In this document: positions 3,183 through 53,733 of the stretch, piece by piece
How the letters are laid out: every line of letters begins with the position of its first letter
How positions within the stretch are numbered: position 1 is the stretch's first letter
Assembly: GCA_039934415.1 (NCBI GenBank)
Contig: JBDTME010000007.1
Span: 3,955 to 67,954, forward strand
From: Patescibacteria group bacterium
GTDB lineage: Bacteria > Patescibacteriota > Microgenomatia > UBA1400 > PJMF01
Direction: 5' to 3'
DNA length: 64,000 bases
Notes under the pieces: generated by a model
Databases searched by the model: none
What the model was told of the DNA's origin: nothing
Seen by the model: the letters and a program-made list of their open reading frames with translations, nothing else
Made by a program: the position numbers and the translations under genes

Positions 3183-4919
3183 TTATCGATGGTCTTTAAT
3201 CCATTCTAAAATCTTTAACGCAATTGGGCCTCCATCAGCAGATCCTTCCCTAAATGGCTTCACTTCATCACTTTCTACCAGAACGACGACTAAAATATTT
3301 TGTGGATACTGTTCTTTCACTTCCGTTTTTTCCAATCGTCCATTTTTTACCAACCGAATCGTCCGCGGTTGAGTATTAAGGTGGGTGAAACCAACAAACC
3401 ACCCGTGCGTTCTACGATGGCCGTTGTTATCAGCTGCACCGAACTCCGCCGTTCCTGTTTTACAAAATACTTTATTCTCTTCTTGATCATTCCAAGGAAA
3501 AAAAGGAAATGCAGTTCCACCTCTAGTACATACTTCTTTCAATCCTTCTTCGATAGTTTTCAAGTGATCCTGTGAAACGGAAATATCCTGACAGTGTCCA
3601 CTCGTTCCTTTGATCAATGTAGGGGCGCAAAGTTTTCCGCCATTGGCAAATAAAGTTAAGGATTGAAAAACTTGGACTGGGGTGACTAATAAATCACCTT
3701 GACCAATACCAAAGTGGTAGGTGTCGCCTAAATACCATTTTTCCCCTACCGCTTTTTCTTTCCATGCAGGATCTGGCACAATTCCAGATGCCTCAGCAGG
3801 CAACTCTATTCCGGTCCTCTTGCCAAAACCGACCATTCTAGCAATCGCTGCTAGCTGATTGGCACCTAACCACTCTGCTGCTTTATAAAAATAAATATCA
3901 TTACTGCGTGCAAGTGCACGAACCAAATTAATACTGCCTTCAATTCGACCATACTGTCGATAAAACCAGTTCCCATACTCAAATTCACCAACTTTTAAGG
4001 TACCTTGATCATCTACTTTTGTGTCTGCATCTACGGCACCATTTTCAAGCGCGCCTAACGCTGTAACCGGCTTAAAAACACTTCCAGGTGGATAACCTCC
4101 TGCCAAAGCACGGTTAAAAAACAATTTATTAGGATCTTGGAAATATGAAGCCAACTGTGTCTTTTTATTCTCATCGTCGGACTCATTCATTGGCGGTCGT
4201 GTGAATTGATTCGCATTAAAAGTAGGACTACTAATCAAACTCAGTACTTCTCCAGTACCAGGATCACCGACTAATACTGCTCCTTTTTGTCCTTTCATCA
4301 GGCCAAAAATGTACGCTGTGAGCTCGCCATCTATTGTTGTTTGAATATGCTGTCCAGAAACAGAGTTCTGCTCGCTCACCGTTCTGATAATTTCACCCTT
4401 TGCATTCGTTTCGTAAACTACTGCTCCATCCTGACCTTTCAACTCATCTTGAAACATCGCTTCCAATCCAACTTTCCCTATGACTTGGTTAAGTGCCAAG
4501 TTGGGATCTCTATCTAGATCTTCTTTGGTAATTGGACCTACATACCCAGTCACTTGAGATAATGCATCTGGGTAAATATATTCCCGATACTGATCAGTAA
4601 AAACTGAACTACTCGCAGTCGCCATTAGCTCCAAGGCTGTACTTTCATCAACTAAAGTCCTGTTACTATACAGACGATTTGGTGATTGGAGTTGATAAAA
4701 AACTGGTTTATTAAACACTAATGATTGTCCAAATCGATCAAACAAAATACCACGATCTGCTACAACTACTTTGTGAAAAAAACGATTGTTCTCTGCTGTT
4801 TGTTTGAGCACAGCTGTTTTGACAACCTGGAGATCAAACATCCGCAATGCCAACATACAAACTAATACACATGCCAGCGTGGGCATGATCCACATCCGTT
4901 TGGAATTCATTGCAGACAT
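3183..4919 (-). CDS. mrdA: Penicillin-binding protein 2 (elongation transpeptidase)
   Basis: 578 aa with an N-terminal TM anchor and a transpeptidase SxxK motif (GSVFKPVTA), plus SxN and KTG-like motifs (FCKTGTAE). Lies directly downstream of an mreB-mreC-mreD-like cluster. Confidence 0.8.
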   Translation of the reverse strand: MSAMNSKRMWIMPTLACVLVCMLALRMFDLQVVKTAVLKQTAENNRFFHKVVVADRGILFDRFGQSLVFNKPVFYQLQSPNRLYSNRTLVDESTALELMATASSSVFTDQYREYIYPDALSQVTGYVGPITKEDLDRDPNLALNQVIGKVGLEAMFQDELKGQDGAVVYETNAKGEIIRTVSEQNSVSGQHIQTTIDGELTAYIFGLMKGQKGAVLVGDPGTGEVLSLISSPTFNANQFTRPPMNESDDENKKTQLASYFQDPNKLFFNRALAGGYPPGSVFKPVTALGALENGAVDADTKVDDQGTLKVGEFEYGNWFYRQYGRIEGSINLVRALARSNDIYFYKAAEWLGANQLAAIARMVGFGKRTGIELPAEASGIVPDPAWKEKAVGEKWYLGDTYHFGIGQGDLLVTPVQVFQSLTLFANGGKLCAPTLIKGTSGHCQDISVSQDHLKTIEEGLKEVCTRGGTAFPFFPWNDQEENKVFCKTGTAEFGAADNNGHRRTHGWFVGFTHLNTQPRTIRLVKNGRLEKTEVKEQYPQNILVVVLVESDEVKPFREGSADGGPIALKILEWIKDHR

Positions 4920-50350: not shown

Positions 50351-51304
50351 ATGACAATTGCAATCGCCGGATCGACCCATCACACAGTCATGTGTGCAGA
50401 AAAAATTCTTGAAGATTCGAGATTTGAAATATCCTGGATTTTGACGCCAGCTCCCAGACATGTGGGCCGAAAACAAGAACTCGTTCAAAACCCACTTCAC
50501 CTTTTCGCGGTACAACATGAAATTCCATTTATTTTGATTGACAAGAAAATTGATGAAACTGTCCGTGTTGAAATTACGGAAGCAAGTACAGCTACTGTCG
50601 ATTTTTTGTTAGTACTCGATTTTGGCTACATCGTTCCGAACTGGTTGTTAGAGCTACCAATGACTGCTCCAATTAATATTCACCCCTCAGATTTACCGAA
50701 GTATCGCGGCAGTAGTCCTGGGCAGTTTGTTTTACTGTATGGTGAGCAGAATTCAGCGATTTCAGTGATAGTGATGAACGATTTACTTGATCAAGGAGAC
50801 TTGATTTATCAGTTTAAATTTGATGTTCTGAGTACCTGGATGATGACTGAGTACTATCACTTCGCCTTCACCAAAATATCCGAACAATTGCCAAATGTTT
50901 TGACCGACTTTTACGCCAAAAAAATCACCGCTGAACCACAACCATTGGAAACTCCGACACCAATTGCGCGTCGCCTCACACGCAAGGATGGGTATGTTTC
51001 GTGGGGTTTGCTCAGCTCTTTAAGCGATAGGAAAAATGAACACATTTCTTCATCGACACCCTTACCTGAATCCCCTTTACTCACAGAGGTCAACCAAACT
51101 ATCAAGGATTGGCCAACGACCATCTCAAATGCGATTCGAGCTCTATCTCCCTGGCCAGGAGTCTGGACGATCGTCCATACGCCCAAAGGCGACAAACGAA
51201 TGAAGATTCTGTCGGCAAAGATCGAAAACGGTAAGTTAGAACTGGAACACGTCCAGATCGAAGGAGAACTTCCCTGTCCTTTCGAAGAAATTCAATTGAG
51301 TTAG
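50351..51304 (+). CDS. fmt: Methionyl-tRNA formyltransferase
   Basis: Formyltransferase core INIHPSDLPKYRGSSPGQ (consensus NxHxSLLPxxRG), and it directly follows def (def-fmt operon). The C-terminal domain is divergent. Confidence 0.8.
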   Translation: MTIAIAGSTHHTVMCAEKILEDSRFEISWILTPAPRHVGRKQELVQNPLHLFAVQHEIPFILIDKKIDETVRVEITEASTATVDFLLVLDFGYIVPNWLLELPMTAPINIHPSDLPKYRGSSPGQFVLLYGEQNSAISVIVMNDLLDQGDLIYQFKFDVLSTWMMTEYYHFAFTKISEQLPNVLTDFYAKKITAEPQPLETPTPIARRLTRKDGYVSWGLLSSLSDRKNEHISSSTPLPESPLLTEVNQTIKDWPTTISNAIRALSPWPGVWTIVHTPKGDKRMKILSAKIENGKLELEHVQIEGELPCPFEEIQLS

Positions 51305-51312
51305 AAAAAGGA

Positions 51313-51522
51313 TTACTCGGCTTTTTTGAAGTGGGTGGTTAAACCCTGTTCCTTGAGAACGCGAAGCATCTTGGTAGGAACTTTGACGCGCTTTTTGACA
51401 CCATCAATTACCAGTGTTGCAGTGTGCAAGTTGCGTTTGAACGCATGACGTGTACGATTTTTAGCGTGGGAAACTCGGTTGCCCATTTCAGCTACTCGGG
51501 GGATTTTCAACATGTATGACAT
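51313..51522 (-). CDS. rpmB: 50S ribosomal protein L28
   Basis: GNRVSHAKNRTRHAFKRNLHTATLVIDGVKKRVKVPTKMLRVLKEQGL matches bL28. Confidence 0.8.
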   Translation of the reverse strand: MSYMLKIPRVAEMGNRVSHAKNRTRHAFKRNLHTATLVIDGVKKRVKVPTKMLRVLKEQGLTTHFKKAE

Positions 51523-51639
51523 AGGTTTTGATCACTATTTAATTCAGAATGTCTGATTTTACCAGAAAAACACGCCTCTTCCAAGAGACAGAGTCAACTG
51601 CACATGAGAAATGGTATACTCATTGAGCTTTAACAAAAA

Positions 51640-51905
51640 AAAGGAGGTCTAAACATCATTTTTTTATCGAGCGTGTGGCCCTACCCTACAATCCAACATT
51701 GTAGTCGGGAGACGAGGAAAAGGGATGATCTTGGCAATACCAAGATCGATCGAACCGTTTATCAGTCCAAATGATGAACGAGTATCTACGGAGACCCTTT
51801 GGGTGACTTGAACATCCACTCAAGACCTGCGATCAAACCTGTTTGTAAGAACAGCTCAAAGTCGCTCGTTTTTTCAAGAAGTCAGTCCTCTGACTTTTTT
51901 TTCCT
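51640..51905 (+). promoter_or_regulatory. Structured 5' leader of glmS; candidate glmS-ribozyme-like element with 3' terminator
   Basis: About 440 nt of non-coding DNA lie between rpmB and the true glmS start. It contains hairpins (CUACAAU-CCAAC-AUUGUAG; GAUCUUGG-CAAUACC-AAGAUC) and the motifs GACGAGG, AUCGAA and GGGUGACUUGAACA, which resemble the glmS ribozyme core/P4 as I recall it. An SD-like AAAGGAGG has no start codon after it. The element ends with a terminator hairpin. Confidence 0.3.
51878..51905 (+). terminator. Intrinsic terminator/attenuator within the glmS leader
   Basis: aagtcag-tcct-ctgactt followed by T9: a 7-bp stem with a 4-nt loop, plus-oriented, 56 nt upstream of the glmS ATG. 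Confidence 0.55.
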
Positions 51906-51960
51906 ATTATTGCTAGCTCTAATACACCTGATGTACTCACGTCATCGGAAAGGTTTTTGT

Positions 51961-53733
51961 ATGTGTGGAATTTTTGCAACTCTGAACGAACCCAAACATA
52001 ATGCTGCCCAGACCATCTTGAAGGGTTTAAAAACGTTGGAATACCGAGGGTATGACTCTTGGGGAATCTCGGTCATCGACTCGAATGAACAGATAAAAAC
52101 TCAGAAAAAAATTGGGAAAATTGGTGAAGGTACTACCAGTTTGCCTGAGTCGGCGATTGGCATTGGTCACACTCGATGGGCTACACACGGAGGCGTCACT
52201 GAGCAAAACGCCCATCCACACCTCGATTGTTCTGGCAAACTCTCTCTGATTCACAACGGCATCGTGGAAAATTATCAGCAGATAAAAACTCAACTGATAA
52301 AAAACGGTCATCGATTCATTTCAGAAACAGATACGGAAGTAATCGTTCATCTGATAGAAGAAACCATGAAGACAGCTTCATTCGAACAGGCAGTCATACA
52401 ATCATTCAAACGGTTAGAAGGAGCGAATGCCATTCTCGTCCTCGATGCTGCTTCAAGAACTGTAATTGCAGTCAAAAATAGCTCTCCATTGTTAGTGGGC
52501 AAAACTGCCACGTCGATTTATTTTTCTTCCGACGCGACTGCATTCATTCCCCTTACTGATCAGATCTACATTATGGAAGACGGTGATGTAATTATTGCCC
52601 ATGACAAAGAGATCCAGCGATACTCAGTGAAGAGCGGCCAGGTACTGCCACTTGAATTTAAAAAGATGGAACTATCCTCCAGACAAATTGATAAAGGAAA
52701 GTTCGCTCATTTTTTAATCAAAGAAGTTCATGAACAACCATTCATCTTGAATCAGTTGGCAAAAACAAAGTTTTCGACCTACCAACAACTCATTCACAAC
52801 ATTCAATCAGCGCCTCAGGTCGTGCTATTAGGTTGTGGCAGCGCATATCACTGTGCGTTGTTTGGAACCTATTTTTTTAATGATGCTGGCATCCTTGCTT
52901 TGGCATTTCAGGCGCATGAATTTGTGGCATTTGCTCCGAACTTGAAACCCGGTGCAATTGTGATTGCGATCTCACAAAGTGGCGAAACAATCGATACTTT
53001 GTTGGCATGTCAGGCTGCCAAAAAAGCTGGGGCAAAGTTGATCGGTCTGATCAACTCTCGCGGGTCGAGTCTTGAACGATTGGTAGATCACGCTTTTCCA
53101 GTTGGAGCAGGACCAGAAATAGCCGTCGTTTCAACCAAAGCATTCCTGGCACAAGTCAGCGCGCTCTTTTTGCTTTCGCAGGTATTAAAGGAAAAAGACT
53201 CTACACAAGGAGCTGAACAATTACAGGTGCTCGCTGACGCCATCACTGCTTTTTTGGAAAATAAAAAAGTACAAAAACAGATTAAAACATTGGCAAAAGA
53301 GCTCGTCGTTGAACCACAGTTGTTCGTCATCGGAAAAGGTCTAAATTATCCAGCAGCGTTGGAAGTAGCACTTAAAATTAAAGAAACAACCTATCTTCAT
53401 GCTGAGGGCTTTGCTGCTGGAGAATTAAAACATGGAGTACTCAGTTTGATTCAGGAAGGAACTCCTACAATCGTACTGACAAGTCAGGATGAACTCATGC
53501 AAGATACTTTCTCAAATGCAATCGAGATCCAATCGCGCGGCGGGAGAATCTTCAGTTTTTCACCAACTGTCTTTGCACAGGCTGACCTCAATATCAGGTT
53601 GCAGGATGTTGGCAAGCTGAATGCTGTGTTTAACATTGTGGTGTCACAACTACTTGCCTATGAACTCGCGTTATTGAAAAAACTCGATCCGGACAAACCC
53701 AGGAATTTGGCTAAAAGCGTTACGGTAAAATAA
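51961..53733 (+). CDS. glmS: Glutamine--fructose-6-phosphate aminotransferase (isomerizing)
   Basis: MCGIFA... gives an N-terminal nucleophile Cys directly after Met. There is a GATase type 2 domain and two SIS domains (GCGSAYHCALFG..., ISQSGETIDTL), and the C-terminus ends ...KSVTVK. The ORF-track start at 51799 is an upstream in-frame extension through the leader. Confidence 0.9.
   Translation: MCGIFATLNEPKHNAAQTILKGLKTLEYRGYDSWGISVIDSNEQIKTQKKIGKIGEGTTSLPESAIGIGHTRWATHGGVTEQNAHPHLDCSGKLSLIHNGIVENYQQIKTQLIKNGHRFISETDTEVIVHLIEETMKTASFEQAVIQSFKRLEGANAILVLDAASRTVIAVKNSSPLLVGKTATSIYFSSDATAFIPLTDQIYIMEDGDVIIAHDKEIQRYSVKSGQVLPLEFKKMELSSRQIDKGKFAHFLIKEVHEQPFILNQLAKTKFSTYQQLIHNIQSAPQVVLLGCGSAYHCALFGTYFFNDAGILALAFQAHEFVAFAPNLKPGAIVIAISQSGETIDTLLACQAAKKAGAKLIGLINSRGSSLERLVDHAFPVGAGPEIAVVSTKAFLAQVSALFLLSQVLKEKDSTQGAEQLQVLADAITAFLENKKVQKQIKTLAKELVVEPQLFVIGKGLNYPAALEVALKIKETTYLHAEGFAAGELKHGVLSLIQEGTPTIVLTSQDELMQDTFSNAIEIQSRGGRIFSFSPTVFAQADLNIRLQDVGKLNAVFNIVVSQLLAYELALLKKLDPDKPRNLAKSVTVK

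Follow-up and report, generated by a model that had tools for sequence, protein, structure and literature searches.

The glmS ribozymes are, to our knowledge, the only ribozymes known to use a metabolite as a cofactor; most descriptions come from Firmicutes, and the class is known for its uniform sequence. Canonical members (Rfam family RF00234; B. subtilis, B. anthracis and T. tengcongensis) lie in the 5′ untranslated region (UTR) of glmS, have an A/GCG cleavage site, and combine helices P1, P2 and P3 and the P3.1 pseudoknot with a core in which ACGAGG carries the catalytic G, AUCG supplies a strand of P2.1 and CGG ends P2.2. In their periphery, P4 has an A-rich internal loop and P4.1 a GNRA cap, and they have no ligand-dependent expression platform. 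All of these features are shared by an element upstream of glmS in a 64,000-nt stretch of a Patescibacteria genome (candidate phyla radiation, CPR), the whole of which we call the window. Unlike the canonical ribozymes, this element has a host outside the Firmicutes, scores just below the gathering threshold of the family, and carries two covarying hairpins in the P2 loop, one on either side of the AUCG strand (51–73 nt in place of ~10–13 nt in Rfam alignments of subtype members). It also differs in having a CGUG/UACG P2.2 helix with a bulged U and GGAGA after it, an extra hairpin abutting P3.1, and a conserved Shine-Dalgarno (SD)-like block 5′ of the cleavage site. We think it probable (roughly 80%) that this element is a functional glmS ribozyme, that is, a self-cleaving riboswitch dependent on glucosamine 6-phosphate (GlcN6P), of a structurally expanded subtype.

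The first indication of identity came from Rfam. At gathering thresholds, a scan of the whole window reported nothing, not even a tRNA. A permissive scan, however, returned RF00234 at 51659–51879 on the plus strand, covering the entire model (positions 1–167; 34.2 bits, E = 3.1e-6), and this was the sole Rfam family matching in 51300–52100 at E ≤ 10. The ribozyme ends 82 nt upstream of the ATG at 51961 on the same strand, which places it in the glmS 5′ UTR. The original prediction, made from the letters of the sequence, had proposed an RF00234 search of the leader and held that an empty result would count against a ribozyme. At the gathering score of 37 the result is indeed empty, whereas by E-value it is not, and the match runs the full length of the model. 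In the Rfam alignment, 58 nt of the window stand inside the P2 loop where the consensus has 10 nt; this large insertion probably accounts for the shortfall in score.

Residues were mapped by the Rfam alignment together with equivalences taken from PMC11602151 and PMC7125110 (Table 1). The equivalents of G1, C2, G3, A27, C28, G56 and G57 are all conserved here, as is the catalytic G, and single mutation of any of those seven residues abolishes cleavage in the core or minimal ribozyme (PMC7125110). G51717 corresponds to the catalytic guanine (Tte G40 = Bsu G42; PMC11602151). We also considered the variable G/U/A that precedes ACGAGG as the catalytic guanine, which would have implied that some copies are inactive, but the mapping in PMC11602151 puts the catalytic G last in ACGAGG, where it is invariant. 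At the predicted cleavage site, GA/GCGUGUGG pairs with C-UACG, and GAGCGUGUGG is kept without change in 10 of 11 relatives, L016 having GCGUAAGG instead. Within the subtype, the P2.2 pairs C2-G, G3-C and U4-A do not vary and G5-U alternates with A5-U; on the 3′ side, the gCGG of the model is aligned to ACGG in AGUAUCUACGGAGA. ACGAGG and AUCG (51749–51752) do not vary among the four sequences that were found by way of their GlmS proteins, ACGAGG being part of the search pattern for the others. Likewise, GAUCGRAC is present in all members, as part of the metagenome search pattern, and is fixed in the four GlmS-found sequences except for one G/A position. The peripheral domain is complete, with P3, P3.1, P4 with its A-rich internal loop, and P4.1 with a GNRA loop (GUAA or GCAA in 7/7 members that have P4.1).

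Most of the sequence blocks that had been named as resembling the ribozyme core proved to be where the original prediction saw them: GACGAGG at 51711–51717, after the P1 hairpin; AUCGAACCG at 51749–51757; and GGGUGACUUGAACAUCC at 51801–51817. What had been taken for a P4-like hairpin with a UGA loop is really P4.1, with a GUAA tetraloop of the GNRA type. Of the two readings then offered, the divergent glmS ribozyme is favored by the full-length sub-threshold match, by the presence of the leader in every close relative, and by covariation (see below). The second, a different sensor of GlcN6P or another metabolite, fits poorly with a locus that has every catalytic-core block of the glmS class in invariant form.

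Our comparison comprised the window, three close GlmS relatives (L007, L008 and L010), and eight distinct metagenome copies (L016, L018, L019, L021, L022, L023, L028 and L030). A scan of GTDB genomes with the GlmS protein found only distant GlmS (35–39% identity), of no use for comparing leaders, and in a collection of 5.8 billion proteins only three exceeded 60% identity to GlmS (P0002, 72%; P0003, 71%; P0004, 61%). Conservation of the leader upstream of glmS in related genomes, which the original prediction had named as a test, was found in all three close relatives. Their contigs have leaders of at least 444–535 nt, that of L008 starting within the leader, and the divergent rpmB neighbor is seen in the two of the three that extend far enough upstream. 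The four GlmS-found leaders align as invariant blocks, which coincide with the ribozyme core, between variable segments.

The metagenomes were scanned with the pattern ACGAGGAA-N15-45-GATCGRAC-N18-48-CTACGGAGA, which yielded 15 loci: 10 true copies, representing 8 distinct sequences, and 5 chance matches in coding sequence. Nine of the 10 true loci lie directly 5′ of ATGTGYGG, encoding the MCG start of GlmS, and the contig of the tenth, L019, ends inside the ribozyme; among the distinct sequences, the glmS start is visible directly downstream in 7 of 8. Together with the window and the close relatives, the element immediately precedes an MCG start in 11/11 copies with downstream sequence (window plus 10 relatives), 6 of which encode full-length GlmS, while 3 contigs break off inside the open reading frame (ORF). 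The associated GlmS proteins represent at least four lineages sharing just 37–48% identity with one another; thus, the architecture is old or mobile and is not confined to one genus. It is also patchy, and not a general feature of Patescibacteria, since L006 gave no RF00234 match and neither did five distant Patescibacteria glmS loci (L011–L015; GlmS at most 53% identical, Roizmanbacteria-like), in which 12–100 nt separate glmS from the upstream gene. We found no report in the literature linking the glmS ribozyme and Patescibacteria.

RF00234 scores varied widely across the subtype. L030 scores 42.0 bits and passes the gathering cut-off, followed by L008 (35.3), L010 (27.5) and L018 (24.5), and permissive scans did not report RF00234 in L007, L016, L022, L023 or L028; in total, 1 of 10 scanned copies exceeds the cut-off. 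Because L030 passes, the subtype genuinely belongs to RF00234 under Rfam's own definition.

Four of the metagenome copies form an AT-rich subgroup: L018 (3929–4153, minus strand), L021 (6178–6394), L022 (3364–3579) and L028 (3654–3871, minus strand). They have no P4.1 hairpin or GNRA loop, their P3 loop is 21–25 nt, only ~116–121 nt separate the core from the ATG, and their GlmS is ~40% identical to that of the window. Separately, positions 3751–3944 (plus strand) of L023 resemble a T-box weakly but over its full length (32 bits, E = 0.002; gathering score 93); the conserved motif GGUGGUACC...CG is aligned, and the stretch may be a divergent T-box.

The original prediction also called for covariation across homologous leaders. 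Since a full-length MAFFT alignment misaligned the variable hairpins, we used a trimmed, ungapped alignment of 158 columns and 11 sequences, in which the distal parts of those hairpins were removed, parts missing in the AT-rich subgroup were written as N, and three pseudoknots were counted. Standard pairs occupied 96.9% of 517 cells, compared with 74.5 ± 1.3% in shuffles (0/500 shuffles reached the observed value), and the covariation score was 0.573 vs. 0.175. Changes on both sides were seen in 35 of 51 pairs, and sliding the 3′ partners by 1–3 columns reduced pairing to 33–48%. Pairing is complete (100%) for all six pairs of P2, two of which show double changes (AU/GC/GU), and for the six pairs of P3.1 in the seven members that could be scored. 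P2.1 is invariant across the subtype, as is most of P2.2, so covariation is uninformative for P2.1. For the canonical helices P1, P2, P3, P3.1 (the pseudoknot), P4 and P4.1, covariation is strong, and it also supports the two extra hairpins in the P2 loop (hp1 and hp2). The Rfam consensus has no stem at the position of hp1; hp2, which replaces a short canonical linker, is a hairpin of 14–33 nt in all members. Both of these hairpins, like P1, fold in every member despite unrelated sequences.

The extra hairpins resemble each other in some relatives. In L008 (145–238), hp1 and hp2 have almost identical loops (CUGACGCAAGUCUAUCGG and CUGACGUAAGUCUAUCGG), and in L010 (800–875), AUCGGAC is common to both hairpins and the core strand, which suggests that the insertions arose from local duplication of the AUCG region. 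This sharing of sequence also permits alternative pairings of the hairpins with the P2.1 strand.

Several points weigh against a functional ribozyme at this locus. Besides the sub-threshold score, a bulged U replaces the bulged A6, which is at least 97% conserved, GGAGA follows P2.2 in place of GGAUG, the base before ACGAGG is variable where the consensus has a highly conserved G, and the two inserted hairpins are located in the catalytic core. P2.2 is CGUG/UACG instead of CGCC/GGCG; although the change from C4-G to U4-A is compensatory, altering the third P2.2 pair made the model ribozyme less active even with a compensating change (PMC7125110). For Fusobacterium, putative members of the class showed no cleavage in the in vitro conditions that were used (PMC10099748), so that activity outside the Firmicutes cannot be assumed. 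In addition, the metagenome members were selected by a pattern derived from the core, making their core identity partly a matter of construction, and the covariation alignment was anchored on helix ends, which favors the proposed pairs.

The low score, the departures at A6 and GGAUG, the two core insertions, and the precedent of predicted glmS ribozymes that were inactive in vitro (PMC10099748) could together be read as signs of a ribozyme-derived leader that no longer cleaves itself, being either a relic or a structured 5′ UTR whose effects are confined to stability or translation, whether or not it binds a ligand. A relic would decay, however, whereas here every known essential core position is strictly conserved and all helices are maintained by compensation among GlmS lineages as divergent as those above. 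This implies that the full catalytic architecture, cleavage-site sequence included, is still under selection, and we regard loss of cleavage as unlikely. The altered nucleotides also adjoin the ligand pocket (GGAGA for GGAUG, U6 for A6), as might be expected if the same scaffold had been re-tuned to another ligand, such as another amino sugar or phosphosugar. Yet the pocket-forming G1, C2, ACGAGG and CGG are unchanged, and the unbroken association with the MCG start in 11/11 copies is the one expected for feedback by GlcN6P, making a change of ligand the most improbable of outcomes in our view.

A hairpin begins at the base directly after the 3′ strand of P3.1 and is followed by a T-run between the ribozyme and the glmS SD sequence. 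It had been described as an intrinsic terminator with a 7-bp stem and nine U residues ending 56 nt before the ATG. The plus-strand hairpin, the 7-bp stem and the T-run are all there, but the run has eight T residues instead of nine, two of these belong to the stem, and it ends 58 nt before the ATG. With 3 G-C pairs the stem is weak, and it fits a loose terminator consensus. Hairpins of different sequence occupy the same place, with a linker of 0–1 nt, in five relatives: AAGUCG/UGACUU in L007, GAGUCAG/CUGACUC in L008, AUUAGC/GCUAAU in L010, GAGACC/GGUCUC in L016 and GAAAUU/AAUUUC in L030. They are missing in L023 and in the AT-rich group. The recurrence of the hairpin in the same place with different sequences identifies it, at the level of comparative sequence analysis, as a selected RNA structure. 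In contrast, none of the ten relatives has a U-run after the hairpin, and the T8 tail is confined to this genome.

The original prediction went further and suggested a terminator-type expression platform, in which the aptamer would sense GlcN6P and control termination at 51879–51902, before glmS. In favor of this, the hairpin and T8 lie on the plus strand between the ribozyme and the SD sequence, the T-run is among the cleanest of the terminator-like sites in 40 kb of the window, and the stem can be drawn in a longer version whose base overlaps the 3′ strand of P3.1. Nevertheless, the U-run occurs in 0/10 relatives, though the hairpin itself is kept; the stem is weak; the 7-bp hairpin can form with or without P3.1; and neither folding nor RNAalifold predicted a competing antiterminator helix. 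Terminator-like sites exceed the shuffle expectation only slightly in this genome (21 vs. 14.6; 22 vs. 13.9). Moreover, glmS ribozymes are pre-folded and keep their structure on ligand binding (PMC11602151), leaving no conformational signal for an attenuator to read. Ligand-controlled termination is thus very unlikely, and the hairpin with its T8 tail is not a conserved, ligand-controlled expression platform. Most likely, the hairpin is a peripheral appendage of this lineage that stacks on P3.1 or insulates it, and in this genome the T8 tail may cause some constitutive pausing or partial termination.

The loops of these hairpins often contain CUCC, CCUC or CUCU (GUCCUC in the window, ACUCC in L016 and L030), which are complementary to GGAG of the upstream SD-like block; judged by this complementarity, a long-range contact between the 5′ and 3′ sides of the ribozyme is conceivable. 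The T8CC stretch (51895–51904) is complementary to the SD sequence of glmS (GGAAAGG). A role of U8CC as an anti-SD element has little support: UUUCC-like strings are kept in L010, L008 and L007 but lost from L016 and L030, and no such pairing is predicted by RNAalifold. Pairing of the SD-like block with the U8CC stretch was rejected because the orientation is wrong.

On the 5′ side of the ribozyme, a TGnTATAMT box is kept in 10 of 12 members, the hexamer starting 46–58 nt before G1; L018 has the hexamer without TG, and L016 has no match. Downstream of it, an SD-like block (AAAGGAGG, or AAAGGAAA in the AT-rich genomes) starts ~27–36 nt before the predicted cleavage site in 12/12 members. The SD-like sequence without a start codon noted by the original prediction corresponds to this block: no ATG, GTG or TTG lies 5–10 nt downstream of AAAGGAGG in the window. 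A leader peptide was considered and rejected, there being no conserved start codon or ORF after the block. STAB-SD sequences are 5′ stabilizers of Bacillus mRNAs (Agaisse and Lereclus, 1996, as cited in PMC3997798). The block resembles them in being an SD-like sequence near the 5′ end of the transcript, ~13 nt after the predicted start, that lacks a start codon within initiation range; its lineage, too, depends on RNase J. It differs in lying 5′ of the ribozyme cleavage site, such that cleavage would remove it. By this analogy, from which any stabilizing role is derived, the block could be a STAB-SD-like 5′ stabilizer that is lost upon cleavage.

Homology, architecture, covariation and linkage to glmS are what the sequences show, whereas the ligand, the cleavage, the decay pathway, the transcription start and the role of the hairpin are inferred. 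Together, these features suggest how the element might work. Transcription would start ~7 nt after the extended −10 box, and the RNA would fold into a doubly pseudoknotted core (P1, P2, P2.1 and P2.2), buttressed by the P3/P3.1/P4/P4.1 domain, with hp1 and hp2 extending out of the P2 loop so as to flank the AUCG strand of P2.1. As GlcN6P accumulates, it would bind the pre-formed pocket and act as a catalytic cofactor, leading to cleavage between A51670 and G51671 and release of a 5′ fragment of ~44 nt containing the SD-like block and ending in a 2′,3′-cyclic phosphate. The glmS message would be left with a 5′-OH end and would be degraded by the 5′-to-3′ exonuclease RNase J, resulting in negative feedback on GlcN6P synthesis. 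Decay of the 5′-OH product by RNase J1 is established in B. subtilis (PMC3997798; PMC10099748), and by analogy the same step is plausible here because CPR genomes retain rnj (RNase J is kept in at least 90% of them; PMC12641178). A more elaborate version can be imagined, in which the elements form a three-part decay switch: the SD-like stabilizer would shield the mRNA from RNase J, the ribozyme would remove this stabilizer when GlcN6P rises, and the hairpin after P3.1 (with U8 here) would pause the polymerase, giving cleavage, and perhaps an RNase J “torpedo” as well, time to act before glmS is transcribed or translated. We consider this scheme speculative and rather unlikely.

Table 1. Features of the rpmB–glmS intergenic region and of the proposed glmS ribozyme (positions in the window).
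Feature	Position	Strand	Details	Pairs changed on both sides
rpmB (L28)	51313–51522	−	Divergent neighbor of glmS	
Intergenic stretch	51523–51960		438 nt, between rpmB and glmS	
Predicted extended −10 box	51612–51620	+	TGGTATACT; predicted transcription start near 51627	
SD-like purine block	51640–51647	+	AAAGGAGG; within the short 5′ fragment that cleavage would release	
Predicted cleavage site and P2.2 5′ strand	51670–51678	+	A51670/G51671; C51672, G51673, U51674, G51675, bulged U51676, G51677; aligned to model A/GCGCC	
P2.2 pairs			C51672-G51790, G51673-C51789, U51674-A51788, G51675-U51787, (bulged U51676), G51677-C51786	
P1 hairpin	51679–51709	+	Variable length and sequence; 16–67 nt across relatives	4/5 (outer pairs)
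Core ACGAGG	51712–51717	+	C51713 and G51714, P2.1 5′ strand; G51717, catalytic guanine equivalent	
P2.1 pairs			C51713-G51752, G51714-C51751	
P2	51719–51724 with 51795–51800	+	AAAGGG with CCCUUU	2/6
Extra hairpin 1 (hp1)	51727–51747	+	Between P2 5′ strand and AUCG strand of P2.1	6/6 (outer)
AUCG-containing core strand	51748–51755	+	GAUCGAAC; C51751 and G51752, P2.1 3′ strand	
Extra hairpin 2 (hp2)	51756–51780	+	In place of the short canonical linker between the P2.1 and P2.2 3′ strands	5/5 (outer)
P2.2 3′ strand region	51781–51794	+	AGUAUCUACGGAGA; C51786 and U51787–G51790, P2.2 3′ strand; G51791, conserved G after P2.2	
P3	51801–51805 with 51813–51817	+	GGGUG/CAUCC	3/5
P3.1 pseudoknot	51807–51812 with 51873–51878	+	CUUGAA (P3 loop) with UUCAAG	4/6
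P4	51825–51831 with 51863–51869	+		7/7
Internal loop IL4	51832–51838 and 51855–51862	+	AUCAAAC and CUCAAAGU; A-rich strands align to model AAA and ACAaAG	
P4.1	51839–51854	+	CUGUUU-GUAA-GAACAG; GUAA tetraloop 51845–51848	4/5
Hairpin after P3.1	51879–51896	+	AAGUCAG-UCCU-CUGACUU; −7.3 kcal/mol	
T-run	51895–51902	+	Eight T	
glmS SD sequence and start codon	51947–51963	+	GGAAAGG 51947–51953; ATG 51961	
glmS	51961–53733	+	Regulated gene; glutamine--fructose-6-phosphate aminotransferase, 590 aa; Pfam GATase_6/7 and SIS domains	

The start of glmS had been placed at ATG 51961 (MCGIF...), and the homologs agree: the best 120 are 582–631 aa and align over their full length with the 590-aa product, which is 100% identical to an NCBI protein from a Patescibacteria-group metagenome-assembled genome. 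A 644-aa ORF from a TTG at 51799 is an artefact of mechanical ORF calling. In the clade of the window, GAAAGG sits 6–9 nt 5′ of ATGTGYGG. As for the leader of about 440 nt in the original prediction, that figure holds for the intergenic stretch, whereas the transcribed leader would be only ~334 nt, judging from the conserved −10 box. The first ~100 nt of that interval, upstream of the box, would instead be the promoter and 5′ UTR of the divergent rpmB, and the motif TGGTAAAAT occurs in this part near 51556–51564 on the minus strand. We found no conserved −10 box for a second promoter between the ribozyme and the ATG. The intergenic region as a whole folds better than shuffles (z = −2.7), which is weak evidence by itself.

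Between the divergent rpmB and glmS promoters lies a short inverted repeat (51573–51590, CGCCTCTTCCAAGAGACA; about 2570–2590 in L007, GTCAGTTCCTAGTACTGAC), which may be an operator or no more than a hairpin. It was among the terminator-like sites in the scan of the minus strand.

Natural variation of this kind may have a precedent. In a 2011 paper in RNA, McCown, Roth and Breaker are said to describe rare glmS ribozyme variants from Deinococcus-Thermus with additional stems in the catalytic core. Those variants, from another phylum, would resemble the present subtype (sequence signature GCGUGUGG...CUACGGAGA) in being natural, in tolerating extra core stems and in having an altered periphery, the AT-rich subgroup here likewise having no P4.1; the likeness is drawn from these reported general features.

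The present case leaves the understanding of how the glmS ribozyme class works unchanged. What it adds is that the class also occurs, patchily, in a Patescibacteria genome. The Rfam gathering cut-off misses most members of the subtype, so surveys of riboswitches in candidate phyla may undercount them, which a subtype-specific model would remedy. Finally, a catalytic core that accepts two sizeable hairpins and a re-paired P2.2 is a useful source of natural data for studies of structure and function and for the design of ribozymes.

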